In this document: piece by piece, positions 24,073-63,677 of the stretch
Layout of the letters: each line of letters opens with the position of its first letter
Position numbering within the stretch: the first letter of the stretch is position 1
Assembly (NCBI GenBank): GCA_951406725.2
Contig: OX597823.1
Coordinates: 25,172,001-25,236,000 of the forward strand
Direction: 5' to 3'
Source of the DNA: Octopus vulgaris
Lineage: Eukaryota
DNA length: 64,000 nucleotides
Notes under the pieces: model-generated
Databases searched by the model: none
Told to the model about the DNA's origin: nothing
Seen by the model: only the letters and a program-made list of their open reading frames with translations
Translations under genes and position numbers: made by a program

Positions 24073-24547
24073 CATTTCATTTTTCATTTTCATTTCATCT
24101 AGTTTCAGCTCACGAGCTGTGACCATGCTAGGGCACTGCCATTCGGTGTTGCTACATGATTTTACTTCACGAATGCTTTTTAGCATTTGACATTTGGTGC
24201 ATGAGAGAGTTTGTTGCAGCTGCCCTCATCTGCACCTCCTGCCGTGAAGTTGGTTCATCTGGGACACCTGACAAGTAGAGGTCCAACTTTACTTTGAAGA
24301 CATCTGCATCCACCCCATGCAGGTCTCTCAGGTCCTTCGGGAGGATATTGAAGAGTTGTGGACCTCTGAAGCCCAGGCTATCGCAGTATCTTGTCCTACA
24401 TCTTGATGGCAAATTTGGAGTTCTTGGTACTATGCAGTGACGCCCAGTTCTAGTATTTGTGTAACTCTCAATGCCAAAGTTTGGGACAAGTCCTTCCAGG
24501 ATCTTCCAGATGTATATTATGGCACATCTTTCTTGCCTACGCTCTAT
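24073..24547 (-). mobile_element. CR1-clade LINE 3' fragment
   Basis: ORF 24167-24598 core ERRQERCAIIYIWKILEGLVPN...RGPQLFNILPKDLRD...FKVKLDLYLSGVPDEP, then a 3' UTR and an (AAATG)n tail. Confidence 0.85.
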
Positions 24548-24623
24548 TATATATATATATATATATATATAATTATTATTTGAGGGAAAAAAATTCAATT
24601 TAGAAATAAAAAATTCAATTTAG

Positions 24624-24782
24624 AAATACTAAATCAAATTTCACACAATATAATATATATATATAAAAAATTAGAAAAAAAACCCCCTTTTATCAATTCA
24701 AAATGAACAATTAAATTACACCATCTCATATAATGTGTAATATAATTATACATTATATTGTGTGAAATTTGATTTAGTATTT
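24624..24782. repeat. 31-bp inverted repeat (fold-back relic)
   Basis: aaatactaaatcaaatttcacacaatataat pairs with attatattgtgtgaaatttgatttagtattt. Confidence 0.8.
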
Positions 24783-24794
24783 CAAAATTTTTTT

Positions 24795-24984
24795 TCCGGG
24801 ACGTCCTACGTCCCAGATATAAAGGTAAAGATAAAATATTTCCACATTGCAAGTTCGAGTCAAGTACTCCCTTGCACGCTCCGTTGACTCGAACCTTGCT
24901 TCTATTGTGGCGAATTTACCGCCTCTGATTAGATATCTTTCGTAGTCGCACCAAGACACTTTTCGAAGGTGCTTTCCTCCATGT
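24795..24984 (-). pseudogene. Fragment of a second, diverged L1/Tx1-type ORF1
   Basis: YLIRGGKFATIEARFESTERARE...FYL/PLYLGRRTSR (joined across frameshifts) aligns with YMTKGLEYGTITVQFKSEKAARN...FYLFPSYLNRRTTR of ORF 25379-26062. Confidence 0.7.
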
Positions 24985-26330
24985 AATTTCTTTATTACCC
25001 ACCAGGGGCTACGAAGAATGGCGGACATAACAAAACATGGGGGACATAGAACAATATGATTAAATTTATGAGCAAATGAAAATGAAAAAATGATAATATG
25101 AAAGCGATGCTAACGGCCCCCTCCGCCAGCATCACTTACCTGTCCTTTTGTTTTCACTGTCACCTGAATGTTCATTCCCAATACGAAGACCATCCATATC
25201 CATTCTTACTCCGAAACTGTCCTCCATATATTCCACGAATTCATCGCTCATTCTTGTATCTTTCACCTCCCAATTCTCCCTTTCACACCTCAACACAAAC
25301 TCATCTATATTCTTCTTTTCCAGCACTGTATATCTGGTCCCATCCATTTCATACCATTCATACTCCTCCATTACCCTTTTAAGAGCAGTAGGCTCTTATG
25401 TGACCCCTCAGGCCACACTTGTAGCACCTGGGCGCCCTACCCTCCACCCATACTCTCATAATAATATTTCCAGTTTTTATACTGTCCGTAAGCTTTTCTA
25501 TAACTTCCGCCTCCGTCTGTATGTTCATTACTAGTGTGGCACCTCTCACGCCTTCATATTTCATAATGGCGTGGAGGATGTCCACTTTATCTTCATTTCC
25601 TTTGATAACCGCAGCCGTTATTAATTCGCCCTCTAGGTGTGGAGGTATTCCTTCCACCCTAATTCTGGTGGTCCTTCTATTCAAATACGAGGGGAACAAG
25701 TAAAACTTTTCTGTACACACCACCTTGGCTGCTATATTCCTGGCTGCTTTCTCACTTTTAAATTGTACCGTTATGGTTCCATATTCTAATCCTTTTGTCA
25801 TGTACACAATTTCTTCTCCTGTCTGTTTGAGAGCCTCTTCAATTGCTTCCATGTTAATCACTTCCATTTTTCTACCTCCATTCATAACTACTTTATATTT
25901 AATGGTTCTACGATGGAACCAGTCTCCGCGCCCTGCTGGAGGCAGCAGCTCGACCTCTCCGTTCTCGTCCTCCTTCATGAACTCCTGGAAGCCCGTCAAC
26001 TTAGCCAGGTCTATCTCTTTTTCTGTTGACTTCTTCGTTACACCTGCGTAGGTGCTTTCCATTTTTTCACCGCCAACTCCTCCTCAGATGTCGACGAATT
26101 TTCAGAGAAATTTCTCCCTTCCATCTCATCCGTTTGGTAGAGGCGGCTCATAGTCGCCTCAGACCGAAAAACGGCCTCCCGAACAGAAAACGTGCGATGC
26201 ACAGAACCAGTGCGACGCGAAACCGCACCAACCGACGTTCCAATTCCGCAACCACAATTCACTTTTTGTTCTTTTTTCTTTTTTAACCGAATTTTACAGA
26301 GCGCAAGAAAAAACGCGACCTTTTTTCTCT
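24985..26330 (-). mobile_element. ORF1-only non-LTR retroelement (HAL1-like)
   Basis: L1-like 5' end (ggtcgcgttttttcttgcgctc), a gag-like ORF with a CCHC knuckle, no ORF2, and a 3' end gcccctggtgggtAATAAAGAAAtt. Confidence 0.65.
25379..26062 (-). CDS. Gag-like ORF1 protein with CCHC zinc knuckle (probably the central part of a frameshifted ~340-aa ORF, 26151-25132)
   Basis: 227-aa ORF with TYAGVTKK, RIRVEGIPPHL and CYKCGLRGHIRAYC (C-X2-C-X4-H-X4-C). Single-base shifts would join it to the upstream MSRLYQ...AVKK and the downstream MEEYEW... ORFs. Confidence 0.75.
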   Translation of the reverse strand: MESTYAGVTKKSTEKEIDLAKLTGFQEFMKEDENGEVELLPPAGRGDWFHRRTIKYKVVMNGGRKMEVINMEAIEEALKQTGEEIVYMTKGLEYGTITVQFKSEKAARNIAAKVVCTEKFYLFPSYLNRRTTRIRVEGIPPHLEGELITAAVIKGNEDKVDILHAIMKYEGVRGATLVMNIQTEAEVIEKLTDSIKTGNIIMRVWVEGRAPRCYKCGLRGHIRAYCS

Positions 26331-26334
26331 ACAT

Positions 26335-26839
26335 TGTATACTTTATAGACAATAGTTTTTTCTTTAATTTAATTTTTTATTATCCATCTGGACTATTCCA
26401 TTTCTGCATGCTAATTTTATTTTTAATTTATTCCCATTCATGTGAAACCACTTATTCAAGTTTAAATCATTGATGCAATTTTATACCAATTGCTATTTTT
26501 ACTTTTGTTATGTTACGATTATATTATACTTTAGTTTGATTTTAATTATTACTTACTACATATAATTCAATTGTTATTATTTTTATTGTTAAAGTGAAAT
26601 AGAGAAATATTTTTGTTTCACTTTTAACACGTAATACTGAAATAGTGGAGAAGATATGATATTGCTATGGGCTCGCTCTAGGCAAGAAGTTGAACATTTT
26701 TTTTTGCCCATGAAACTATACGGACCCTAAGTAAGGCATGTGTTAAATTTGAATGAAATTGGTTGTGTAGTTCTCAAGTTTTAGGGAAACACACAGACAG
26801 ACAGACAGACACACATTCTCAGTTTTATATATATAAAGA
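26335..26839 (-). mobile_element. Non-autonomous Helitron, 5' portion
   Basis: Minus strand starts A|TCtttatatatataaaactgagaatgtgtgtctgtctgtctg, the same start style as 23003 and 52812. No 3' CTAG end found. Confidence 0.65.
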
Positions 26840-32221: not shown

Positions 32222-32519
32222 CTTGAAGATGCCCCCTCTTCTTTGAGGACACAAATTGACATGCAGAATACCATAGCCGAGCATTGTTATAATCATCAAC
32301 TTTGGAGATTACCTTATCTACCAGAATTGGGAACTAAAAGTTCTTTCCAGAGACGCAAACATTCCTACATAATTCTTTAAACTAACATGACCAGAATAGT
32401 TATTATTCTGTTTAAATTATAATTAAATTATTTAAGTTCTAATTATGACAATGCAAATATTTAAAGAAGCTTAAGCAATTCCTACTACTTTCGAGGGAAA
32501 ATACTATTAGAGAATAAAA

Positions 32520-33971
32520 ATGGAGAAAAGTGACTTAGATGAGAATTTTACATACCAAGATGATATCATTCGTCGCACACGGAAAGCAATCCGTGATTTG
32601 CATACACTTCGTAATGAACACCTCAGCATCATCAATAATATCAAAATGAATTTCAAAAGCAATGTAGTTGATACAAATGATATAACAGTAGAAAAACTTG
32701 ATGTTTTGAAACATTCCCAAGAAGCAATAGACTTGGCTTTGGAAGAAGCAGAAATAACAATGCTTTTGACAAAACATTTGCAGTATCTTGAAGGAGAGAA
32801 CTTGAAACTGCGTACTGAGGTGTCACTTCTGAGAAAAGAGAATGATTGGTTAAGAAGTGAATTGTTAGATGCTCAGACCAAATTGCAAAACTGTCAAGAA
32901 TCTCTTGTAGTTGCTGAGGAGAAAATAAAGCACTTTGAGTTCATGAAAGAGTTAAATTTTGATGAGAATGAAGAAAAAACTGATTATGATAGTGAGGGCA
33001 AATGCCGCCCTTCATCTTTTGATTTGAGTTTCTTGGATGACATTGTAGAAGATGCAGAAAGTCCTGGCTATGAAATTCCTGCTCGATTCCGATCGTTGTA
33101 TGACTTAATAACACAGTATGTTATGCAAGGTCGACATCAGGTGGCATTAACTTTATGCAAGCAAACAATACAGAATTTAGAAAAAACTAGTCGGTTTAAC
33201 CCTGAAGAAGCTATAGTCCTACATATGCAGGCTCGCATCTATAAAGATATGGGCAACATGCAAGAAGCTGTCAGAGTGTTAAAAGCTGCTCTTTTAATAA
33301 GAGAAAACACTGTAGGTCATGAACATCCTTCTGTGGCAGCAGTTCTAAATAACCTTGCTGTGATGTATGGAAAAAGTGGTAATTTCAAAGATGCTGAAAA
33401 AATGTGTAAGAGAGCTCTGGAAATAAAAGAGAAAATTCATGGTACTTATCATCCTTCGGTGGCAAAATTATTCAATAATCTGGCACTTCTCTGTCAAAAT
33501 CAAAACAAATATGAACAAGCAGAGTACTATTACAATCAGTCTTTGGAAATATATAAATCTATGTTTGGAAATGATCATATGTCGGTAATGAAAAGTAAAA
33601 ATAACCATGCTTCTTTATATCTTCGGCAAGGAAAGTATCGGCAAGCTCAGGATATCTACAGAGAGGTTCTTATACAGTTTTGTGAAAAGAAATACGGTAG
33701 CATCGATGATGACAGTGGGCATACTTTAACTCCTCAGGAACAAGAAAATGGTGGCTTGTTAATCTATTATATAAAAAAAATATGCGAACGGAGTAAAATG
33801 GGTTTGAACGTTTTTAAGAATCCTGCATTGATCACAACTTTGGTGAACATGGGTATACTTCATAGACTTATTGGTAAAAACAAAGAAGCTTCTCTCTTTG
33901 AAGAGAGTGTCTTTAGAATGAAAAAGACTAACAGCCGCTATAAACTAGTAGCAGTTCCTGAAGAAAATTGA
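32520..33971 (+). CDS. KLC: Kinesin light chain, intronless and diverged (probable retrogene)
   Basis: 483-aa uninterrupted ORF. N-terminal heptad region (LRTEVSLLRKENDWLRSEL), GYEIPARFRSL, and KLC-type TPRs (HPSVAAVLNNLAVMYGKSG, CKRALEIKEK, VAKLFNNLALLCQNQNKY). Confidence 0.95.
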   Translation: MEKSDLDENFTYQDDIIRRTRKAIRDLHTLRNEHLSIINNIKMNFKSNVVDTNDITVEKLDVLKHSQEAIDLALEEAEITMLLTKHLQYLEGENLKLRTEVSLLRKENDWLRSELLDAQTKLQNCQESLVVAEEKIKHFEFMKELNFDENEEKTDYDSEGKCRPSSFDLSFLDDIVEDAESPGYEIPARFRSLYDLITQYVMQGRHQVALTLCKQTIQNLEKTSRFNPEEAIVLHMQARIYKDMGNMQEAVRVLKAALLIRENTVGHEHPSVAAVLNNLAVMYGKSGNFKDAEKMCKRALEIKEKIHGTYHPSVAKLFNNLALLCQNQNKYEQAEYYYNQSLEIYKSMFGNDHMSVMKSKNNHASLYLRQGKYRQAQDIYREVLIQFCEKKYGSIDDDSGHTLTPQEQENGGLLIYYIKKICERSKMGLNVFKNPALITTLVNMGILHRLIGKNKEASLFEESVFRMKKTNSRYKLVAVPEEN

Positions 33972-39403: not shown

Positions 39404-40253
39404 TATGTTGAGTCAAAAGTTTGCAATATTTTGGTAACTTATTTGATTTATTCATTAAGTCACAACAAAAGCAGCTTAGCATTCAAAGTAGAGGCCATCA
39501 TTTTACACCATATGAAGCCACCTGTTTGCCAGTTCTTTGATCCTATGCTGACACCAGTTCTTGTCCTTCGAGACAACTTCTTCATAGAAGCTTCCACTTC
39601 CTCTTGGTTGATGAAGTGTTGCAAAGGCAGGAATTAAGCCATGGATCAGAACAAGTAATAATGCAAGGAAGATATCTTTCCACAATACTAATGTGCATGA
39701 GCAGAAATTAAGCAAAGACCAGCTTTCGGAACCTGTTGCCAAACATGAGTTTCAAACACAGGAGATGCTCTGCACCTGGTGGAATTATGAGGTGATAATT
39801 CACTATAAGTTTTTCAGACAGTCAAACCATTGATGCCAACCCGTATTTCGAACAGCTGGAGTGGATGTATGCCATTTTGCAGCAAAACTACCCAACATTG
39901 GTTAACAGAAAATGACTCCAGAATAAACTCCAGGAACTTGAGGGGATCAAACTGATTCTAAACCCAATATATATTCTGGACCTAGCTCCCTCAGATTATT
40001 ACTTATGATCCATGGCTCACTTCCTCTGCTTGTGATGCTTCATCAACCAAGAGGAGGTAGAAGCTTCAGTGAAGGTCTTCACTCTGAAGGACAAGTACTG
40101 GTATCAATGTAGGATCAAAGAACTAGCAGAGAGGTGGCTTCAGATGGTACAGCATGATGGCCTTTACATTGAATGTTAGGCTGCTTTTGTTGCAACTTGA
40201 TGAATAGAGCAAATAAGTTGCAAAAATATTGCAAAACGTTTGACTACACAATA
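39404..40253 (+). pseudogene. Internally deleted mariner transposon
   Basis: TIRs tatgttgagtcaaaagtttgcaatattt / aatattgcaaaacgtttgactacacaata. Decayed WWNY, YPTLVNRK, DLAPSDYYL and IKELAERW motifs. Confidence 0.85.
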
Positions 40254-47729: not shown

Positions 47730-49359
47730 GCTACCTAGCTATCTGTCTATCTGCCTGCCTGTCTGTCTGTCATGATAAATAGATATATAGCTAGCTAGCT
47801 AGATAGTTTGATAGATAGATAGATAAATAGATAGATAGATAGGTGGATTACTGGGAAACTGTCCAGAAGTAAGAGAGGAATGCATTGGACACGATCATAT
47901 TACACAAATGAACTGAGAGAGTGACAGAACATGAAAGATATTAATTGAAGTGGTTAGTAGAGACAACACTGTTGGTACAGACAAAGATGATTCCTAGTTG
48001 AAGATGTTTTGGGGACTTCAGGTGGAAAGAACCCACGGCAAAAAAAAAAAATATCAAGAAAAACAATTGTTTAGCCTGAAATCAGCCCTGATCGAGCAAT
48101 GAGATCCAATATCGAAAGCAATCCATCCATGACAATCACCTTTGTTTTCAGGTATAGTGGAGAAAAACCTAAAATAAATGATGTTATGGGAGATTTGATT
48201 GCTATTTCTAGCATTTCGTACAACATTATACGGGCTGTATTTTTGGCTCATGAGGAGATTTGTTACGGAAGATATGAGGAAGAAATGATAACTTTGAAGC
48301 AAATGGTAATATGCAGTACATTCAATCTAAATTAATACGAAACGGTTCTAATCTAAGGGAAATAAATCCTATGCATGGGAGGTAACTCGGTCTAATCCTA
48401 ACATTTTCCGATGCTTTACAGCATATTTCAAGCGAAGTGCATTGAGGTTACGAGTCATAGAAAATCTTCTTAAAGAAGTTAACGAGGCATATGTAATGAA
48501 TGATTCAGACGGAGTTTATCTATACATGACACTCAGTGTTATTAACATTTTATATAATGAATGAAATGACAAAACAGTTCTGTTTCCTAAAACTGCTTTT
48601 TCAATGTAAAAACCAGGTAAGCAATTTTAGCTATTATACGTTAAAAGCTTTTAATATTTCTTCCGTGTATTTGTTTGAAAATTCATTTGAAATGAGATCG
48701 TGGTGTGTCGAAACTAGAAAAAAAAACAGAAGAAAAGAAACAAAACAAAAAAGATGTATTCTGAAAATATTTCATTTTGCATTTTCGTATTTTATTACAT
48801 AGTAGGAATAGAGTGGAATTTCCACGGATATTTTGAAAATTGTAAGATGTAATTCGATATTTTTCTGAACTATTTGACGTTTGAGATTGCATAAAAGACA
48901 ACATAGATAAAACTAAAAGTGGAATCCGAAGAAACAAGGTCTCTATACTTTCTATATTCTAGTGTGTTTTACTTTGTAAGTTTTATCTATCAATTTTCGC
49001 TTTATGTAAAGAAGTAAACTATCTTTAAAAGAGAATAACATTGAAAATATCATTTATAATATTCTCTAACTATATGTTGCTAAAGCTTTTACAGAACTTT
49101 GTACATTTATTTGATGAAAAAAACCCACTAAAACCACCTTACTTAAAACGTTGTCACTCTTTCTCTTTACGTCAATTGTCGTCCATATTTGTCTATTTGA
49201 GCAGACGACAATTGATTGTGCAAACGCGCATGCGTTAAATGATAGCCGATAAAAACCAGACAGAAAACGACCCTTCACTGTCCAACCGCCACGTCCATAA
49301 TCGAATATTCCTTGTAATTACTATTAGCACCCACTTCATTATCTATCCATCTATCTATG

Positions 49360-49605
<246 letters not shown>

Positions 49606-49769
49606 TGTCAGTTAGTTTGATAGATAGATAGATAGATAGATAAATAAATTAATAGATAAATAGGCACTGATCTATCTACCAGTATATATAACCGCGCCAC
49701 CATCTATCAGTCGGTCCACCTGTTCATCCGCCCGTCTTTTCATCAATCTCTTGTTTTTTCCATGAAGAA

Positions 49770-50230
49770 GGAAACAGCTGCCATTTTCTACCCCTCCACC
49801 CACGATAAAGCAGCCTTATGACCATGTTTATCAAATGGCGTGTCTTGCATTATATGATATGTATTCTTTAAGATTTCATCTATAATTAGAGGATTATGCA
49901 GATGTTCTTCCCAGTAAAGCAGTCGCCCACATACAGGAGTCTATTGTTACTAGATACGACTTTCCTTCATTACACTAAACTGTATGTATTCTCTACAGCT
50001 ACCTGTTGTACTAATAGGGCCATTTATTTAATAAAACTATTGACTATGTCTGGTGAACACTTAAAGCAGTACATGCACTTCCTTTCGTTGATGCTTCAAC
50101 TTACAGCTGCTTCTGTGTAATTATCCACTTCATATAAAGTCCTCAGTTTGTTAGTTCACGATATATTTATCACATTGCTTTTCTTGTGGTGTTTTAAAAA
50201 CTTTTAGACAGGAAAAAAGCTCTGGCTGAT
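49770..50230 (-). repeat. Inverted copy of part of the duplication unit
   Basis: Reverse complement of about 61450-61880 (and 57520-57690), for example ttatcaaatggcgtgtc vs gacacgccatttgataa. Confidence 0.85.
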
Positions 50231-50395
50231 GGATGGAGGACGGATGGATAGATGGAAAGACGGGTGGATGGATTGAGAGACCGACAGACAGACGGATTGT
50301 TGAAAAAACGGGGACGGATTGATCGATGGGTAAAAAGACAGGTGGACGGACTGATCGATGGAGGGGCGCATATATATTTTAGTAGGAAGATCACA

Positions 50396-50475
<80 letters not shown>

Positions 50476-50491
50476 GTCTGTCTGTCTGTCT

Positions 50492-51468
50492 GACGACGAG
50501 CTCGGGGCGAACCTGGACGTCGACGAGGAGTACCTGACCCGCCTGTTCAGGACGACTTTCGGGCCAGGGCCCATGGACAACTTCCAGAGATCCCTGGCCT
50601 GGCAGTGCTACCGAGAAGCGCTACCCGTTCGGGATAAGCTCTACAGACACGGCTCGAGAAACACGGGGCCGACCTGCCCGAGATGCGGTCAGAGCGACGA
50701 AACCGTTCTGCACGCACTCGTTCAGTGTCCAACAATTTCCGACCTGTGGGCTTATGTCGAACAACTGCTGTCACGTGTGGGACGAGTCGGTTTATCAGCT
50801 GAGTCTATCGTCAATATTGTCACGCCTCCTTCCTTCAAACGGGAAGGAAGAGCTATTTTCATCATCCTTGTGGCTATGGCGAAAGAATGTATCTGGTGGA
50901 CGCGTCTGAAAGGATTGGAGACAAACACTTTCCTCTCTGGTCAATCTCTCATCAACTTCTTCAAGTACCACTTGAAAAGGAAAGTGAGAGTAGAGAGGCA
51001 AGTTTTGTCTAGCGAATGTTTTAAAAAAAGATGGGTGAATGTAGCAAGAATGGCACGTATGAATGTCGAAGCCACCTTGAGCATAGTCCTATGAACCCAG
51101 AAATCGAAAACAGAGAGTTGCTTATTTGCAAAAAAAAAAAAAAGAAATATAAAATGTGACATCATTGACCGAGGTTACCGTGGTCTTTTCCGTAGGCTTT
51201 TCTTTGCACGGGTAAACCTCACCTGTCCTCCCCTTTACACTTCATATTGACATTTCTGTGATAACGATCCCTATTGATCAATTTTTTTCCTCCCCCCTTT
51301 TTTTAACCCCCCTTTTTTTTGTCCTCTTTCTCTCCTTTTACGATCCCTTTTGATCGAAACTCCCCCTTCCTTTTTTTTTTTTTTCTCTTTCTTAAACCTT
51401 CAAAAGAAAAGCTCTACCTTGTAATTTGTTCTATCTGTGTGCAGCCCTGTGTGGCTAATAAAGAAACA
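50492..51468 (+). mobile_element. Tx1/L1-like LINE copy B (ORF2 C-terminus plus 3' UTR) in (CTAT)n(CTGT)n
   Basis: Open frame to the stop at 51094 with a zf-RVT-type CPRCGQSDETVLHALVQC motif. Both junctions lie in microsatellite. Confidence 0.9.
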
Positions 51469-51542
<74 letters not shown>

Positions 51543-51555
51543 GCTAGCTAGCTAG

Positions 51556-51586
<31 letters not shown>

Positions 51587-51688
51587 GCTAGCTATCTGTC
51601 TATCTGCCTGCCTATCTGTCTGTCATGATAAATAGACATATAGCTAGCTAGCTAGCTAGATAGTTAGATAGATAGATAGATAGATAGT

Positions 51689-51746
<58 letters not shown>

Positions 51747-51747
<1 letters not shown>

Positions 51748-52340
51748 GTTTCTTTATTGGCCACACAGGGCTTCACACAGATGGGACAAGTTACTAGGTA
51801 GAGCTTTTCTTTTGGGGGATGAAAAAAACAAAAAACAAAAGAAAAAAAGAAAGAAAAAGGGGTGGCGTAAGTTTTCGATCAAGAGGAATCGTAAAAGGGA
51901 AGAAAAGAACAAAAAAATTAAATAAATAAAATAAAAAATAAAAAGAATAATAAGAAAAGAAAAGAAAAGGAAAAGGAACAAAAGAAAAGAGAAATGAAAA
52001 AAGAAGAAAAAAGGGGGAAAAAAAAGGGGAAGAGGAAAAAAAGAACGATCAATAGGGATCGTGTATCATAGTGTTATGATATATGGTGTAAAGGGGAAAG
52101 CAAGTAAGGTTTATCCGTGGGAAGAAAAGTTACGAAAAAGACCACGGTAACCTTGGTCAATATTGTTATATGTTACCACATTTGTTTGCAAGTGGGTAAC
52201 CCTCTGTTTTCAATTTCTGGGTTCACAGGATTATGCTCAAGGTGGCTTCGTCATTCATACGTGCCATCCTTGCTACATTCACCCATCTTTTTTTAAAACA
52301 TTCGCTAGACAAAACTTGCCTCTCTACTCTCACTTTCTTT
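51747..52340 (-). mobile_element. Tx1/L1-like LINE copy C in (GATA)n
   Basis: Reverse complement of the ORF2 end and 3' UTR, flanked on both sides by (GATA)n. The empty paralogous site is at about 47800-47841. Confidence 0.9.
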
Positions 52341-52811
52341 AGATAGATAGGTGGATTACTGGGAAGATGTCCATAAGTAAGAGAGGAATGCATTGGACGC
52401 GATCATATTACGCAAATGAACTGAGAGAGTGACAGAACATGAAAGATATTAATTGAAGTGGTTAGTAGAGACAATACTGTTGGTACAGACAAAGATGTTT
52501 CCTAGTTGAAGATGTATTGGGGACTTCAGATGGAAAGAACCCACGGCAAAAAAATATATAAAAAAAAATTGTTTAGCCTGAAATCAGGCCTGATCGAGCA
52601 ATGAGATCCAATATTGAAAGCAATCCATCCATGACAATCACCTTTGTTTTCAGGTATAGTGGAGAAAAACCTAAAATAAATGATGTTATAGGAGATTTTA
52701 TTGCTATTTCTAGCAGTTCGTACAACATTATACAGGCTCTATTTTTGGCTCATGAGGAGATTTGTTACGGAAGAAATGATAACTTTGAGGCGAATGGTAA
52801 TATGCAGTACA

Positions 52812-53210
52812 TCTTTATATATAAAAGTCAAGTTGTGTGTCTGTCTCCTACGATTTAGATTCCTAACTACTCCCACATTTTGCGGTGCAGTTTAACCAAA
52901 ATCGGGTATCTTATAGTTGTAATTCATATCGAGCCCTTCTGGGCATTAGCGCGCGTCTACGATGAGTCTACGATTTAAAAAAAAAATTAACCATCAATTT
53001 TTTTCCATTGTAATGCATTTTTTTCGCAATTATATAAGGGAAGTAACTCTCTAAAAATGTCTACGATCAATCAACGATTAAAAAAAAAATTACCATAGTT
53101 TATTTTCCATTTTTAATGCATTTTTTGCTATAATTTGGCTATAAGTCTCTAAAAATGCATATATAGTTATTTCCCTTACAAATCCGAGCAACGCCGGGCG
53201 ATACAGCTTG
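52812..53210 (+). mobile_element. Non-autonomous Helitron with an empty-site paralog
   Basis: gcagtacA|TC...hairpin...CTTG|Ttcaatct. The paralog at 48313-48330 reads gcagtacattcaatct, so insertion was between A and T with no TSD. Confidence 0.9.
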
Positions 53211-54165
53211 TTCAATCTAAATTAATATGAAACGGTTCTAATCTAAGGGAAATAAATCCTATAAACGGGAGGTAACTCGGTCTAATCGTAACATTTTCCG
53301 ATGCTTTACAGCAAATTTCAAGCGAAGTGCATTGAGGTTACGAGTCATAGAAAATCTTCTTAAAGAAGTTAACGAGGCATATGTAATGAATGATTCAGAC
53401 GGAGTTTATCTATACATGACACTCAGTGTTATTAACATGTCATATAATGAATGAAATGACAAAACAGTTCTGTTTCCTAAAACTGCTTTTTCAAAGTAAA
53501 AACCAGGTAAGCAATTTAAGCTATTATACGTTAAAAGCTTTTAATATTTCGTCCGCGTATTTGTCTGGAAATTCATTTGAAATGAGATCGTGGTGTGTCG
53601 AAACTAGAAAAAAAAACAGAAGAAAAGAAACAAAACAAAAAAGATGTATTCTGAAAATATTTCATTTTGCATTTTCGTATTTTATTACATAGTAGGAATA
53701 GAGTGGAATTTCCACGGATATTTTGAAAATTGTAAGATGTAATTCGATATTTTTCTGAACTATTTGACGTTTGAGATTGCATAAAAGACAACATAGATAA
53801 AAGTAAAGGTGGAATCCGAAGAAACAAGGTCTCTATACTTTCTATATTCTAGTGTGTTTTACTTTGTAAGTTTTATCTATCAATTTTCGCTTTAGGTAAA
53901 GAAGTAACCTATCTTTAAAAGAGAATGACATTGAAAATATTATTTATAATATTCTCTAACTGTATGTTGCTAAAGCTTTTACAGAACTGTGTACATTTAT
54001 TTGATGAAAAAACCCCTCTAAAAACACCGTACTTAAAACGTTGTCACTTTCTCTTTACGTCAATTGTCGTCCATATTTGTCTATTTGAGCAGACGACAAT
54101 TGATTGTGCAAACGCGCATGCGTTAAATGATAGCCGATGTTACTATTACTATTAGCATCCCATTC

Positions 54166-54288
<123 letters not shown>

Positions 54289-55209
54289 TTCCTGTTCTGT
54301 CACTCGGAGTTTATCTATACATGACACTCAGTGTTGTTAACTTGATATATAATGTATGAAATGACAAAACAGTTTTGCTTCCTAAAACTACTTTTTCAAA
54401 ATAGAATTCAGGTAAGCAATTTTAACTTTTATACGTTAAAAACTAAATATTTCTTTTTAGCGCATTTAAATATTTGTTTTGTTGACAATTCACTTGGTAT
54501 GAGATTGTGGTGTGTTGAAGCTAAAGGAAAAAAAATGTATCGTGGTAGTATTTTCTTTGATATTTTATTACATAGTAGGAATAGAGTGGAATTTCCACGG
54601 ATATTTTGGAAATTGTAAGATGAAATTCTATATTTTTCTGAACTATTTGAGTTTTGAGATTGTATAAAAGACAACATAGATAGAACTAAAGGAGAAATCT
54701 GAACGAGGCATATCTAATGAATGTTTCAGACGGAGTTTATCTATACATGGCAATCAGAGTTATTAACATGTCATATAATGTATGTAGATAGAACTAAAGG
54801 AGAAATCTGAAGAAACAATGTTTCTGACTGCTATATTCTAGCATGTTTTGTGAGTTTTATCTATCATTTTTCACTTTATGTAAAGAAGTAAGCAATCTTA
54901 AAACTTGAACAATATTGAAAATATCATTTATCGCAATATTCAGTAACTGTATGCTAGTAAAGTTTTTACAGAATTTTGTACGGTTACTTGAAAGAAAAAC
55001 AAATGACAAAAAATCGTAATAACACCGTACTTAAAACCTTGCCACTTTTTCTCTTACGTCAGCTGTTGTCCCTTTTTGACTATTTGAGCAGACGACAATC
55101 GATTGTGCTAACGCGCATGCGTTAAATATAAAAGGTAATGAAGAAGTAAACCATTCTTTTCGCTGGTCGTAACCAAATAATCTCTGCTAATATCACCACC
55201 ACCATCACT

Positions 55210-56847
55210 GAGCGTGCCTGCATACGTGGACGACGTCACTGTCATAGTGTCTAGCCACGAGCTCATCGAGCAGGTCGGCGAGACACTGAAAGACTACGAA
55301 GCGGTGACAGGAGCGAAAATCAACCGGGAAAAGTCAGTGGGCTTGCGACTAGGCACCTGGTGAAGCAAGCCCATGCCGTCCACCAGCGCCTCCGTCGTGG
55401 GACGCATGACCGACGGCCCGGACGATTTGCTCGGGGTCTGGTTTGGTCCGGACCTCCAAGTGGAGAAGAACTGGAACGAGTTAACGAGTAGGGTGGTCAC
55501 TCTCGCTCGGCAATGAGCCGAGAGGAAACTGTCCCTAAAAGGTCAGGCGGAGGTGGCAAACACGTACATCGCATCCGTCATCTACTACCGCCTGACCGTC
55601 GTGCCTTGTCTCGACCCTACCATCACCAAACTAGAACGCATTCTCTTTCGCTTCTTGTGGAAAGGATGCGTCCCGATGGTCAGGCGATCCATTTGCTGTC
55701 AACACCCGTTAAAAGGAGGACTGGGCATGCCGTGGTTGATGATGCGCAGACACGCGCTGAGACTGCGACATCTCAGGCTCTACGTAGACGACGGTGAACA
55801 GGTGTGGTCGCCGTTTGTGAGGCACGCTTTCCCGCAGCTCGTCTCCATGCCCGAACTGCAGTCGTGGATCAAAAAGAGGACTCCATCACAACCAAAGCAT
55901 TCTATAGGGGATTAGTGGAGGGGAGGTACGACGACGATCTTGCGGCGAACCTGGACGTCGACTCGGAATACCTAACCCGCCTGTTCGGGACGACTTTCCG
56001 GCGAGGGCCCATGGACAACTTCCAGAGATCCCTGGCCTGACAGTGCTACCGAGAAGCGCTACCCGTTCGGGATAAGCTCTACAGACACGGCTCGAGAAAC
56101 ACTGGGCCGACCTGCTCGAGATGCGGTCAGAGCGACGAAACCGTTCTGCACGCACTCGTGCAGTGTCCAACAATTTCGGACCTGTGGGCTTATGTCGAAC
56201 AACTGCTGTCACGTGTGGGACGAGTCGGTTTATCAGCTGAGTCTATTGTGAATATTGTCACGCCTCCTTCCTTCAAACGGGAAGGAAGAGCTATTTTTAT
56301 CATCCTTGTGGATATGGCGAAAGAATGTATCTGGTGGACGCGTCTGAAAGGTCTAGAGACAAACACTTTCCTCTCTGGTCAATCTCTCACCAACTTCTTC
56401 AAGTATCACCTGAAGAGAAAGGTGAGGGTAGAGAAGGAAGGTTTGTCTAGTGAATGTTTCAAATAAAGATGGGTGAAAGTAGCAAGGATGGCACGTGTGA
56501 ATGACGGAGCCAGCTTGAGCATAATCCTAGGACCCCCCCCCCAAAAAAAAGAAAAGAGGAAAAAAGAGAGACTCTGCAATGTGTTTTTTTTTTTGCATGA
56601 CATTATTGCCCAAGGTTATGGTGGTCTTTTCCGTAGGCTTTTCTTTCCACGGATAAATCTAATCTGTTTTCCATTTTTACATTGACATTTCTGTGATACA
56701 CGATCCCTATTGATCGGCTATTTTTTTTCGAAGATCCATTTTGATCGAAATTCGACCCACTTTTTTTTCTCTTCTTCCCAAAAAGAAAAGCTCTACTTTG
56801 TATTTTGTCCCCTCTGTGTTCAGCCCTGTGTGACCAATAAAGAAACA
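55210..56847 (+). mobile_element. Tx1/L1-like LINE copy D (RT C-terminal half, zf-RVT, 3' UTR), disrupted
   Basis: Starts at AYVDDVTVIV (YADD box), then KINREKSVGLRLGTW, LGVWFGPDLQVEKNW and RKLSLKG. Contains stops and an internal deletion at about 55880. Ends AATAAAGAAAca-TATC. Confidence 0.9.
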
Positions 56848-56932
<85 letters not shown>

Positions 56933-57012
56933 GTCTGTCTGTTTGTGTATGTGTGTGTGTGTATGTGTGTGTGTGTGTATGTGTGTGTGTGTGTGTGCAT
57001 GTCTGTTTGTTT

Positions 57013-57046
<34 letters not shown>

Positions 57047-58958
57047 TGTGTGTCTGTGTGTCTGCTTACGTATCGAACTACATAACTGTTTGCCTGCCTA
57101 CATGTCTACGGCTACTGTACGTTGGTAAAATTTTCACAAATACGCCAGTGAAAAAAAAAAAGGGGTAAATAAAATGAATTAATCAAAATAGATCCGTAAT
57201 CATTCTTTCTCTTGATGTGTTTCTCTTGCGTGCCTACATATCTAAGGCTAAAGTAAGCTGGTAAAGTTTGTTCAATACGGCTGTGAAAATTAAATAAATA
57301 CATAAGTTAATTAATTAAAATAAGTTAATTAACTAAAATGTGCCCGTACTCACGCTTTCTCTTGACGTTTAATGTTAACAATATGTTATAAACAAATGAA
57401 TATAAGTTACGATTGAGCAGACGACGATTAATTGCATGAACGTACATGCATTAAATGAAGGGCAATATTTAAAGATAGTACCTTTTCACTGACCAATCAC
57501 TATCTAGGCATCTTAAGCTTGTATGTGGGCGACTGGTTTACTAGGAAGAGCATCCACATAATCCTCTGATTACAGATGAAGTCTTAAAAAATACATCACA
57601 TATAATCCCAGACACGCCATTTGATAAACATGATCATAAAGTTGTTTTCTCAGAGGTGACAAGGGGTAGAAAATGGCAGCTGTTTCTTTCCCAACAGAAA
57701 AAGACAAATCTATGTTGAAACATTTAAACAAATATAAAGGAAATCATACGTGGGTTAACGGGAAGATGTCCAGAAGTAAGAGGGCAATGCATTGGATACG
57801 ATCATATTACACAAATGAACTGAGAGAGTGACAGAACATGAAAGATATTAACTAAAATGGCTAGCGGAGACAATATTGTTACTACAGATAAAGATGGGTG
57901 TTAGTTAAAGATGCATTGGTGGAAAGAATCCACGGCAATGAAATATAAAAAAAAAAAGCAGTTCTTTAGTTTGAAGTCATACCTGATCGAGCGATGAGAT
58001 CCAATATGAAAGGCAATTCATTCATGACAATCACCTTTGTTTTCAGGTATAGTGTACTTTGGAGAAAATCCTAAAATAAATGATGTAATGTTAAGGGAGA
58101 TTTCATTGCTATTTCTAGCATTTTGTGCAAAATTATACCGGCTCTATTTTTGGCTCATGGGGAGATTTGTTACGAGAGATATGAGGAAGAAATGGTGATG
58201 TTAGCTTTCAGGATGTTGTTAATCACAAAAGAGATGACAAAAGATGAGGGGCGAATGGTAATATATAATACGTTCAATCTGAATCAGAATGAAATGGTTC
58301 TGGTCTAAGGGAAATAAATCCTACGCACGGGAGGCAACTGGGTCCAATCGTAACATTTTCCGATGCTTTACAGCATATTTCAAGCGAAGTGCGTTGAGGT
58401 TACGAGGCATAGAAAATCTTCTTAAAGGAGTTAACGAGGCATATGTAACGAATGCTTCAGACGGAGTTTATCTATACATGACACTCAGTGTTATTAACAT
58501 GTTATATAATGTATGTAGATAGAACTAAAGGAGAAATCTGAAGAAACAATGTTTCTGATTGCTATATTCTAGCATGTTTTACTTTGTGAGTTTTATCTAT
58601 CATTTTTCACTTTATGTAAAGAAGTAAGCAATCTTAAAACTCGAACAATATTGAAAATATCATTTATCGCAATATTCAGTAACTGTATGCAAGTAAAGTT
58701 TTTACAGAATTTTGTACGGCTTTTTGAAAGAAAAACAAATGAAAAAAAAATCGTAATAACACCGTACTTAAAACCTTTCCACCTTTTCTCTTAACGTCAG
58801 CTGTTGTCCATATTTGAGTATTTGAGCAGACGACAATCGATTGTGCTAACGCGCATGCGTTAAATATAAAAAATAATGAAAAAATAAACCATTCTTTTCG
58901 CTGTCCAAATACTACGTCCGTAACCAAATAATCTCTGCTAATATCACCACCACCATCA

Positions 58959-59038
<80 letters not shown>

Positions 59039-59049
59039 TTATCTATCTA

Positions 59050-59130
<81 letters not shown>

Positions 59131-59160
59131 GTATCTGTCTTTCTGTCTGTCTGTCTGTCT

Positions 59161-60721
59161 GCCTTGCGGCTCGGTACCTGGAGAAGCAAGCCCATGCCAT
59201 CCACCAGCACCCCCGTCGTGGGACGCTGGACCGACGGTCCGGTCGAGTTGCTCGGGGTCTAGTTTGGTCCGGACTTCAAACGGAGGAGAACTGGAACAAG
59301 ATAACGAGTAGGGTGGTCACTCTCGCCCGGCAATGGGCCGAGAGGAAACTGTCCCTAAAAGGTCGGACGGAGGTGGCGAACACGTACATCGCGTCCGTCA
59401 TCTACTACCGCCTGACCGTCGTGCCTCGTCCTGACCCTACCATTACCAAACTAGAACGCATTCCCTTTCGCTTCCATTTGCTGTCAACACCCGTTAAAAG
59501 GAGGACTGGGCATGCTGTGGATGATGATGCGCAGACTCGCGCTGAGACTGCAACATCTCAGGCTGTACGTAGACGGTAGTGAACAGGTGTGGTCGCCGTT
59601 TGTGAGGCACGCTTTCCCGCAGCTCGTCTCTATTACCGAACTGCAGTCGTGGATTAAAAACTCGCCGAGGAAGGGCGAATGGCATCGCGAGTGTCGCGTT
59701 GCTCTCAAGCAACTATGCCGTCCCGGGTCGACCTTGAGTGACTTCAACACAACCAAAGCATTCTATAGGGGATTAGTGGAGGGGAGGTACGACGACGAGC
59801 TCGGGGCGAACCTGGACGTCGACTCGGAATACCTAACCCGCCTGTTCAGGACGATTTTCAGGCCAGGGCCCATGGACAACTTCCAGCGATCCCTGGCCTG
59901 GCAGTGCTACCGAGAAGCGCTACCTGTTCGGGATAAGCTCTACAGACACGGCTCGAGAAACACGGGGTCGACCTGCCCGAGATGCGGTCAGAGCGACGAA
60001 ACCATTCTGCACGCACTCGTGCAGTGTCCAACAATTTCGGACCTGTGGGCTTATGTCAAACGACTGCTGTCACGTGTGGGACGAGTCGGTTTATCAACCG
60101 AGTCTATCGTGAATATTGTCACACCTCCTTCCTTCAAACGGGAAGGAAGAGCTATTTTCATCATTCTTGTGGCTATGGTGAAAGAATGTATCTGGTGGAC
60201 GCGTCTGAAAGGATTGGAGACAAACACTTTTCTCTCTGGTCAATCTCTCAACCTCTTCAAGTATCACTTGAAAAGGAAAGTGAGAGTAGAGAGGCAAGTT
60301 TTATCTAACGAATGTTTAAAAAAAAGATGGGTGAATGTAGCAAGGATGGCACGTATGAATGACGAAGCCACCTTGAGCATCATCCTATGAACCCGGAAAA
60401 ATTTAAAACATAGGGTTACCTACTTGCAGACACATGTGGTAACATGTAATATTATTGACCGAGGTTACGGTGGTATTTTCCGTAGGCTTTTCTTTCTACG
60501 AATAAACCTTATTTGCTTCTCCCTTTACATTTTACATCATGGCATTTCTGTGATACACGATCCCTATTGATCGTTTTTTTTCTTTTTTTCTTTTTTTTCT
60601 TTCCCTTTTACGACCCCTTTTGATCTAAACCTGCCACACTTTTTTTTCTCCCCAAAAAGAAAAGGTCTACTTTGTAATCCGTCCCGTCAGTGTGCAGCCC
60701 TGTGTGGCTAATACTGAAACA
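59161..60721 (+). mobile_element. Tx1/L1-like LINE copy E
   Basis: ORFs 59313-59579 and 59512-60390 (292 aa, CPRC...H...C motif). 5' junction in (CTGT)n, 3' junction in (TATC)n. Confidence 0.9.
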
Positions 60722-60808
<87 letters not shown>

Positions 60809-60866
60809 TTATCTATCTGTCTGTCTGTTTGTGTATGTGTGTGTGTGTGTGTGTGTGTCTGCATGT

Positions 60867-60907
<41 letters not shown>

Positions 60908-62422
60908 TCTGTGTGTGTGTGTGTGTGTGTGTGTGTACGTCTGTGTGTCTGCTTACGTATCGAACTACATAACTGCTTGCCTGCCTACATGTTTACGGCT
61001 ACTGTACGTTGGTAAAGTTTTTACAAATATGGCAGGGGAAAAAAAAAGAAGAGCAAATAAATAAATTAATCAAAATACACCCGTGATCATCCTTTCTCTT
61101 GACGTCTTTCTCTTGCGTGCCTACATATCTATGGCTATAGTAAGTTGGTAAAGTTTGTACAATACGGCTGTGAAAAAATGAATAAGTAAATACTTAAATA
61201 AGTTAATTAATTAACTAAAATGTACCCGTACTCACTCTTTCTCTTGACGTTTAATGTTGACCATATGTTATAAATAAATGAATATAAGTTACGAGTGAGC
61301 AGAGGACAATTTATTGCATGAATGCACATGCATTAAGTGATGGGCAACATTTAAAAAAAAGTACCCTTTCGCTGACCAATCACTAACTATGCATCCTTAA
61401 GCCAATACAACCACCGTCCGTCCGTCTGCTCATCCTCCCTTTCCTCCATCAACCAGCCACTGCCTTCTTGACTAAAGGTTTTTAAAAAATCCACAAGAAA
61501 TGCAGTGTGGTGTATAGTGAACTAACAAAGTGAGGACATCATATGAAGGTGATAGTTACACAGAAACAGTTGTAAGTCGAAGCATCAATGAAATGAAGTA
61601 CATGTACTGCTTTAAGTATTCACCGAACATAATGGTTTTACGTAGCTGTAGAGAATACATAAAATTTGGTGTAATGAAGGAGAGTCGTGTCTGGTAGCAA
61701 TTGACGCTTGTATGTGGGCGACTGCTATATTAGGAAGAGCATCCACATAATCCTCTAATTACAGATGAAATCTTAAAGAAACACATCTCATATAATCCAA
61801 GACACGCCATTTGATAAACACGATCATAAGGCTGATTTTTCAGGGTTGACAGTGGTTAGAAAATGGCAACTGTTTCTTTCTCAACAGAAAAGACAGGTCT
61901 ATCATGAAACATTTTCAAAAATATGGTAGGAAACAGGAGTGATGAATGACAAGTGGTAAGAGAGGAATGCGTTGGATAGGATCATATTACATAACTCAAC
62001 TGAGTGAGTGACAGAACATGAAAGATATTAATTGAAGTGGTTAGTAGAAACAATACTGTTGGTACAGACATATATGTGATATAATCAAAGATGGTGTTGA
62101 TTAAAATGTGTTGCAAGCTGAAGGTGGGAAGTATGTAAGGCAGAGGAATATGAAGAAAAGCGTTGCAGTTGTTTCGCATGAAGTTGGCCCAGATCGAAGA
62201 ATGAGTTTTCATATTGAAAGCATTCTATCCACGGCAATCACTATTGTTGTCAGGTATAGAATACTTTGGTGAAAATCTCCGAGCAAATTAATAACGTCTT
62301 TATTTAGAGTATAATTTATGGGAGATTTAACTGCTATTTCTAGCATGTCGTGCGACAACATAGAGTCCCTATTTCTGCTCCGTGAGGGACACTTTTTCAA
62401 AGAAGATCTAAGGATGTTGACT

Positions 62423-62820
62423 GTAGTTTTGTCCGTCAATGCGATGAAGACCATCTAGTCATCCTTGGGTGGGGGTGGGATTGTTTAGTGAGGCCAATCT
62501 GCGCCCGAAAGAGTCTTTGACAGTGTGGACAGGGAATGGTAGCGCCTGCTACCGGGTTGTTAGCTCTGTTCTTCCTGGCTTGTCTGCGGTATTTTGCAGC
62601 AGCGATCCTATTGGTCTCGCATGTGTTGGCACCCTTGTGGACAGCTGATCGCCACCCTTCTCTGTCTAGAGCAGACTGCTCCCAAGTGTCATGGTCGATG
62701 TTGAAGGCTTTCAGTGAGGCTTTCAGTGTGTTCTTAAAGCACTTCTTCTGGCTGCCTTGTGAGCGCTTTCCCTTTTGCAGCTCGCTAAAGAGCAATCATT
62801 TTGGTAATCGATCGTCTGAC
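62423..62820 (-). mobile_element. RTE-clade LINE 3' fragment with 9-bp TSD
   Basis: ORF 62436-62795 reads ELQKGKRSQGSQKKCFKNTLK...WEQSALDREGWR...CPHCQRLFRAQIGL. TSD atgttgact at 62414-62422 and 62821-62829. Confidence 0.9.
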
Positions 62821-63677
62821 ATGTTGACTACTATGAAGATGGCGATGTAAGCTTTCAGGATGCTGGTCATCACAATAGAAATGACAAAGGAGAAGAAAAG
62901 AATAGTAATATGATAAACAATCCAATCTAAAATGAGATGGTTCTGATGTAAGGGAAATTATTTCAGAGGCACGGGAGGTAAATCTGTTTAATCGTAATAT
63001 TTTTCGAAGCATATTTCAAGCTTAGTGCATTGAGACTAGACATTGAAAATCTTCTTGAAGAGATTAACGAAGTATACAAAATTAATGTATCAGACGGAAT
63101 TTAGCTGTAAATGAAATCCAGTCATATAACTTATGAAACGACATAAAACAGTTTTGTTCCCTAATAGCTATTTCATATATAAAACCATGCAAGCTATTTT
63201 AGCTGTTATATTTAGATATGGACCAAAGTCGAATATTCCAGACAAAGTCTCTCCACAATTGTGTGTTTGTTTTTCAGCTGCTAATTTGAAGAGAGGGTGC
63301 AACTTTTTCTGTAATTCTCTGTATATTAAAGCTTGTGTTCCTGTCCATTGTCAAAAGAGATGAACATCTTCACAGCCATAATATCCTCCTACCAATACAC
63401 CAGTTTAGCTATTACTGCGTTGCAAATTTTAAATATCTCTCTAGTGTATTTGTCTGACAAAGCAATTCATATGAAATCATATTGAATTAAATCTAAAAGA
63501 AGAATTTTAAAAAATTAAGAAGTAAATGTATCATGGTGGAAGTCTGTTTGCTATTTTGTAAACTGTTAAATAGTTAACACAAATGTATCATATATTTTCT
63601 ATAAATTATGCAACTGCAGATTGCGAAGGAATAAAAAAAACAATCATGCAATGCTTATCTTGCTTTATTATGTAAAC

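Follow-up and report, generated by a model that had tools for sequence, protein, structure and literature searches.

An ORF1-only LINE element inserted into an older ORF1 of Octopus vulgaris, a candidate HAL1-like non-autonomous element

The 64,000 nucleotides of Octopus vulgaris DNA analysed here (the window) are AT-rich and contain a LINE-like element that lies as a discrete insertion within an older ORF1, which differs from its own and runs in the same direction. The element comprises, in this order, a 169-nt CpG-rich 5' leader, a LINE ORF1 and a 145-nt 3' UTR; ORF2 was not detected. Its ORF1-only layout, together with a full 5' end and a LINE-type terminus at an independently fixed junction, makes mobilisation in trans likely, as the original prediction had proposed. 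We favor, at about even confidence, the explanation that the element is a HAL1-like ORF1-only copy, reverse-transcribed in trans by a LINE of the L1/Tx1 type other than the GATA-targeting LINE whose copies are found in the same window. The features on which the analysis is based are collected in Table 1.

Table 1 Features of the element, of the ORF1 that it interrupts and of the LINE copies used for comparison (positions in the window).
Feature	Position	Strand	Basis or remark
Whole ORF1-only element	24987..26320	minus	1,334 nt; ends defined by the flanking ORF1 halves
CpG-rich 5' leader	26152..26320	minus	CpG count
ORF1 start and acidic N-terminal segment	26069..26151	minus	translation; frame differs from core
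ORF1 core with an N-terminal helix/hairpin, a pair of RRM-fold domains and a single CCHC knuckle	25382..26068	minus	
82 open codons and stop, in the frame of the ATG	25132..25380	minus	coding-like
3' UTR (145 nt) with a T-rich tract, a tandem duplication of 19 nt at 25011-25048 and a stem-loop at its end	24987..25131	minus	
Predicted terminal stem-loop ending in AATAAAGAAA	24987..25020	minus	fold -8.4 kcal/mol
5' half of interrupted older ORF1	26321..26377	minus	family columns 53-71
3' half of interrupted older ORF1	24790..24986	minus	family columns 76 to about 140; tblastn, HMM
Comparison LINE 3' pieces, 5'-truncated, L1/Tx1-type	about 49365-49478; 50492-51466; 51749-52340	plus; plus; minus	zf-RVT
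Further comparison LINE 3' pieces, 5'-truncated, L1/Tx1-type	about 55210-56845; 59161-60719	plus; plus	zf-RVT

The ends of the element can be read from its flanks. The 57 nt outside the 5' end match columns 53-71 of the ORF1 family better than any other place in the window does (1 of 127,882 positions in six frames), and the DNA just beyond the 3' decamer yields columns 76-92 and 93-129. When the two flanking pieces are joined, a junction gap of exactly four codons is best with 27.1 bits, a score that was reached by none of 1,000 shuffled upstream pieces, whereas gaps of 0-3 or 5-7 codons give 19-22.5 bits. The flanks are two halves of one older ORF1, and it follows that the element is discrete and that its terminus lies exactly at the junction. 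The extent originally given, 24985..26330, had to be revised accordingly to 26320-24987, as the stretch 26377-26321 is part of the interrupted ORF1. The latter shares 21 of 73 residues with the ORF1 of the element and is 44% identical to relative P0020; in a tree built from 77 columns and 60 rows, whose deep forks are weakly supported, the two ORF1s fall into different groups and the branch of the element is long (1.17). The 3' half of the older ORF1 carries frameshifts of its own and is cut off at an AT-rich inverted repeat. This repeat (24608-24795) has 49-nt arms with 92% complementarity and starts where the older ORF1 ends. A target-site duplication was considered and rejected, as the longest match between the junctions, AGAAA, is with 5 nt too short to accept. 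If the terminal decamer belongs wholly to the element, about 8 nt of the target are missing, and target truncation is among the insertion outcomes described in PMC4494074.

The open reading frame of the element is a type I LINE ORF1 with the domain order RRM-RRM-CCHC. ORF1s of this type are defined in PMC4120745 and PMC5203782, and the former places them in many clades. The original description as a gag-like CCHC ORF was thus right about the knuckle and too vague in its first term. The middle frame spans 234 codons and ends in C-x2-C-x4-H-x4-C; in the element copy, the stop in the core frame comes one codon past this knuckle. A HMMER search among 1.84 billion representatives returned 188 relatives of the core at E<=0.001, and these correspond to 188 clusters at 50% identity, so that the family is very diverse. 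The best relative is 58% identical over 116 residues. An AlphaFold2 model of the core, calculated from a 93-row alignment, reached a pLDDT of 91; its top matches in Foldseek are tandem-RRM proteins, and VIA-align comparison with RRM domains gave Z values of about 8-9. By Atlas features, the ORF1 matches (0.90) a cluster annotated with RBD_ZCCHC3_1st, RBD_ZCCHC3_2nd and zf-CCHC, while Pfam searches returned no direct match to these domains. Pfam also returned no match to Transposase_22 for the element or for 150 relatives. A word-index search found no ORF1 relative of similar length among 528 candidates; this search is insensitive and is contradicted by the HMMER scan. A scan of prokaryotic genomes gave 88 pattern matches, none of which was confirmed.

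From the ATG at 26151 to the end of the stop at 25132, the reading covers 340 codons and changes frame twice. The first of these changes resides near 26068 within an A-run, and no relative was found to align across it; the second is located near 25380, one codon after the knuckle. With two frame changes, this copy is probably dead. The ATG, the stop and the two frame changes agree with the earlier notion of a protein of about 340 residues restored by two corrections; that there was one such protein is possible and unproven.

Similarity to all ORF1 relatives stops at the second frame change, which may therefore be a deletion junction. This counts against the HAL1-like reading, as do the occurrence of a single copy in the window and the modest identity of the nearest relative (58%). 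The relatives typically run on past the knuckle into a long low-complexity linker, which the best relative also carries and the element lacks. At least 11 of 150 relatives are closed by a shared C-terminal domain. This conserved domain is characterized by an 'LK..FP.DV'-like motif and lies outside every Pfam family. In the element, the 82 codons after the knuckle have the appearance of coding sequence, with no stop in the frame of the ATG compared with six and nine in the other two frames, and only 0.035% of base shuffles keep this frame open. The 40 residues following the second frame change are 38% hydrophobic, compared with a maximum of 25% in 37 relatives, a change of the kind expected at a deletion junction. 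Neither Pfam nor Atlas nor PDB sequence searches gave a significant match for this tail. A low-confidence model of it (pLDDT 59) is beta-rich and found no match in Foldseek. Resemblances seen by eye to the family C-terminal domain and to ORF2 ends were dropped on shuffle tests. For the family C-terminal domain, 258 of 933, 58 of 923 and 16 of 200 shuffles were as good as the real tail; for the ORF2 C-terminus, the numbers were 1,274 of 2,000 (HMM) and 73 of 200 (hhalign), the comparison set in this case being five C-termini that all stem from one lineage other than that of the element. The tail may be a diverged ORF1 C-terminal domain or an ORF2 end.

The element has kept both a LINE 5' end, i.e., a CpG-rich leader followed by an ATG, and a LINE-like 3' terminus; its parent LINE was not found. 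Seventeen CpG dinucleotides are present in 26152-26330, which corresponds to an observed/expected ratio of 1.91 as compared to 0.6 for the window, and the next 300 nt upstream of the leader contain a single CpG. From its composition, the leader is likely a 5' UTR with an internal promoter. The predicted L1-type 5' end was examined as CpG richness, and the 5' boundary itself moved to 26320. As had been stated from the outset, no endonuclease or reverse transcriptase was detected in the element, either by Pfam or by comparison with an ORF2 C-terminal profile; a short diverged ORF2 end may be present. What follows the knuckle amounts to 249 nt of coding sequence and 145 nt of UTR. Likewise, none of the 150 ORF1 relatives is fused to an endonuclease or reverse transcriptase, and a weak search among proteins of 1,508-4,305 residues revealed no long ORF1-ORF2 fusion. 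The pairing of this ORF1 family with a Tx1-type ORF2 therefore depends on the tail. Neither blastn nor profile searches found a further copy of the element in the 64-kb window.

The 3' UTR, predicted at about 150 nt, agrees in length with that expectation. The decamer AATAAAGAAA with which it ends is present five times in the window, at four LINE ends and in the element, and the fifth LINE end carries a variant of it. Similar interrupted stem-loops, with the decamer as one of their parts, are predicted for all six 34-nt termini, those of the element and of the five LINE copies; in the inner stem, the element has a C-G pair in place of the G-C pair of the LINE ends. A shared stem, as anticipated for element and LINE, was predicted in all six termini, and the exact decamer is present in four of the five LINE ends. 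Two observations favor the assignment of the decamer to the element: It pairs with the element's own upstream bases, and when read in register as target it encodes a stop and Arg at positions occupied in the family by K/R (51 of 59) and I/L/V (52 of 62). Taken by itself, the decamer is weak evidence, as 0.6-1.6 occurrences are expected per 94 kb by chance, although the chance of one falling no more than 300 nt from a given stop is 0.2-0.5%.

In the 40 nt preceding the decamer, none of 6,000 random sites comes as close to the five LINE ends as the element does; for the 15 and 20 nt before the decamer, 11 and 20 of 6,000 random sites did better. Dinucleotide shuffles of 15, 20 and 40 nt were as good in 52, 90 and 9 of 1,000 cases, with one LINE end 9 nt out of register. 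In a blind scan with a covariance model built from the five LINE ends, the element was found at 24987-25029 with an E value of 2.6, as the 10th of 31 non-training matches. The similarity of the 3' ends, for which chance had been named as the counter-case, thus exceeds chance at the fixed junction and does not do so in the blind scan; we consider it significant only because the junction sets its position independently. Note that the LINE-end hairpins are no more stable than shuffled sequences and that covariation among the five LINE ends, with 92% of cells paired and one compensatory pair, is not significant (107 of 500 shuffles as high). In the LINE end at 60678-60719 (plus strand), which bears the variant decamer, the opposite arm is altered to match, so that a compensatory pair forms and the stem is stronger (-13.1 kcal/mol). 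Two weak miRNA matches in Rfam were discarded, as they fall on simple repeats outside the element. Judged by sequence comparison, the tail reads as real but distant homology to the LINE ends, and the predicted stem-loop is likely a signal for recognition by the reverse transcriptase. According to PMC3747384, LINEs that recognise their RNA stringently typically have 3' stem-loops of this kind.

The LINE pieces in the window are 58-64% identical to reverse transcriptase proteins, one of them from Argonauta hians, and a gene model of Octopus bimaculoides contains a piece of the same ORF2. A 63%-identical relative of the LINE matches human L1 ORF2p with an E value of about 1e-50 as compared to 1e-24 for R2. 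On similarity, the LINE belongs to the L1 group, and its assignment to Tx1 is provisional. The five copies are 5'-truncated at about 0.1-1.6 kb, and all five 3' ends enter (TATC)n two bases past the terminus; TATC or TCTG repeats are also present on the 5' side of four of the five. In contrast, there is no TATC run at either junction of the element, and (TATC)3 is absent from positions 1-47,000 of the window. The 3' UTRs also differ in length, with 145 nt in the element versus 329 and 372 nt in the LINE, and blastn between them found nothing beyond 22 nt at an E value of 0.34. According to PMC4494074, the endonuclease is the main determinant of the target, and shared targets have been used to assign Tx1 partners. 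Since the element, known from one copy, has no TATC and inserted into an ORF1, its enzymes were probably not supplied by the GATA-targeting LINE, and this part of the original prediction found no support. More likely, the partner is a sister family that shares the ancestral tail. As 13 recently active L1-Tx1 families have been reported for Octopus vulgaris (PMC13282606), other partners are plausible.

In the region 47800-63200, a unit of roughly 4-5 kb is locally duplicated, with 70-97% identity. Two of the LINE copies, at 55.2k and 59.1k, occupy paralogous sites with shared 3' flanks and different 5' ends. Because some copies share flanks through local duplication, the five LINE ends are not independent events. 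At 51314-51917, two LINE 3' ends point at each other from either side of (TATC)n/(GATA)n arrays and form a 600-nt imperfect palindrome. Elsewhere in the window, an open frame at 24170-24530 (minus strand) without a Pfam match presumably resembles the C-terminal end of a CR1/L2-type ORF2. An uninterrupted frame of 486 codons at 32511-33971 (plus strand), present once in the window, encodes TPR repeats behind an N-terminal coiled-coil-like part; we take it to resemble an intronless kinesin light chain, and it is possibly a retrogene. Palindromic or inverted-repeat elements with 250-420 nt arms or length at 1-421, 2035-2420 and 39411-40245 are possibly foldback or MITE-like.

If the element was mobilised in the HAL1-like manner that we favor, its CpG-rich leader would drive a polymerase II transcript, and the ORF1p translated from it would coat its own RNA in cis. 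The borrowed ORF2p of the partner would recognise the conserved 3' stem-loop, nick the target and prime reverse transcription on an RNA short enough for copying through to the 5' end. The complete 5' end of the element, compared with the truncation of all five LINE copies, favors such a short template. Either the roughly 8 nt of target would have been lost in this process or part of the A-rich decamer would have acted as microhomology.

In principle, the same structure could have arisen if an autonomous LINE of the L1/Tx1 type had undergone a single internal deletion, during reverse transcription or later in DNA, an explanation that we hold to be possible and less probable than the HAL1-like one. 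The ORF1 knuckle would then have been joined to the last 82 codons of ORF2 with its normal stop and the 3' UTR, and neither a family nor a 340-residue protein would exist. A single such event would account for the missing linker, for the frame change one codon past the knuckle and for an open frame that stops 145 nt short of the terminus, and the presence of a single copy in the window fits as well. On the other hand, the tail is unlike the five ORF2 C-termini with which it was compared, albeit these represent one other lineage. L1 ORF2 C-terminal ends are helical, whereas the low-confidence model of the tail is beta-rich. The deletion would furthermore presuppose insertion at full length or a template jump, which is rare, in a region where every LINE copy is 5'-truncated. 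The HAL1-like reading and the one-off deletion can be separated only by genome-wide copy number.

It is also conceivable, though we regard it as improbable, that the element belongs to an ORF1-only family mobilised by the (TATC)n-targeting LINE and that this copy went off target, perhaps by A-rich microhomology priming. The identical decamer and the similar stem-loop layout speak for this, and dependants may prefer the target less than their partner does, as exemplified by 13-23% in two SINEU families in PMC4494074. However, TATC is missing at both junctions, the similarity is confined to about 40 nt with an exchanged pair in the inner stem, the 3' UTRs are of different length and barely alignable, and the other active L1-Tx1 families of the species offer alternative partners (PMC13282606). 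Least probable in our view is a chance likeness of the tails, with the decamer mostly representing target and the insert being a 3'-truncated ORF1 transcript or a retrocopy of a domesticated ORF1 of the ZCCHC3 or L1TD1 kind. The chance expectation for the decamer alone and the E value of the blind covariance scan are compatible with this, and the four missing target codons could partly lie within the decamer. Yet the 40 nt that precede the decamer, and that are too far inside the insert to be target, surpassed every random site, the insert has no poly(A) tail, and the two frame changes speak against a working host gene at this locus.

Several known systems invite comparison. HAL1 elements of mammals are non-autonomous, encode only ORF1p and arose from L1 several times (PMC5753468), and the octopus element, too, consists of a 5' end, an ORF1 and a 3' end. 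Mammalian L1 ORF1 is of type II with a coiled coil, one RRM and a CTD (PMC5203782), whereas the element encodes a type I protein with two RRMs and a CCHC knuckle. Because of this different ORF1 type it is not a HAL1 in the strict sense, but by analogy it would work like one. It further differs in lacking poly(A), in ending with a stem-loop and decamer and in being known from one copy. Bipartite non-autonomous LINEs that carry ORF1 are an established class in the L1, Jockey and CR1 clades, and HeT-A (Jockey clade) and Ag-Sponge (CR1 clade) are alike in this respect (PMC5786205). ORF1s of the Jockey lineage are type I, and those listed in PMC4120745 have three CCHC knuckles compared with one in the element. 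Clades and hosts differ as well. HeT-A is telomeric, while the element does not reside in a telomeric context. Target-preferring LINEs of the Tx1 clade and their dependants (Tx1, Kibi, Koshi, Tx1-Mar, SINEU) resemble the (TATC)n LINE of the window in targeting microsatellites, and some Tx1 families insert into other transposons (PMC4494074). The element differs from the Tx1-clade LINEs in lacking ORF2 and in having another ORF1 as its target, and from SINEUs, which are non-coding, in carrying an ORF1. ZCCHC3 is described as a chordate host gene that restricts L1 (PMC10351740); its likeness to the element consists of the Atlas cluster match, which is a lead. Literature searches found no ORF1-only Tx1-type element; Repbase or the octopus repeat library of PMC13282606 may contain one.

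One extension of the HAL1-like reading, which we consider unlikely, is a hyperparasite: a family of Tx1-type, ORF1-only elements in octopods whose ORF1 lacks the linker and has a new C-terminal domain, and which move by means of a structured non-poly(A) tail and target the ORF1 of other LINEs. If it were true, the ORF1 of rival elements would be knocked out while the element supplies its own. The nested insertion provides exact element ends for a search of the genome. Should the element prove to be single-copy, it is an ordinary deleted LINE. If it is multi-copy, ORF1-only non-autonomous LINEs would extend to type I ORF1, to the L1/Tx1-type lineage and to cephalopods, with an origin that is likely independent of mammalian HAL1, HeT-A and Ag-Sponge. 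Such a family would test whether reverse transcriptases of the Tx1 type recognise a 3' stem-loop rather than poly(A), and it would offer a natural test of why such parasites retain ORF1.
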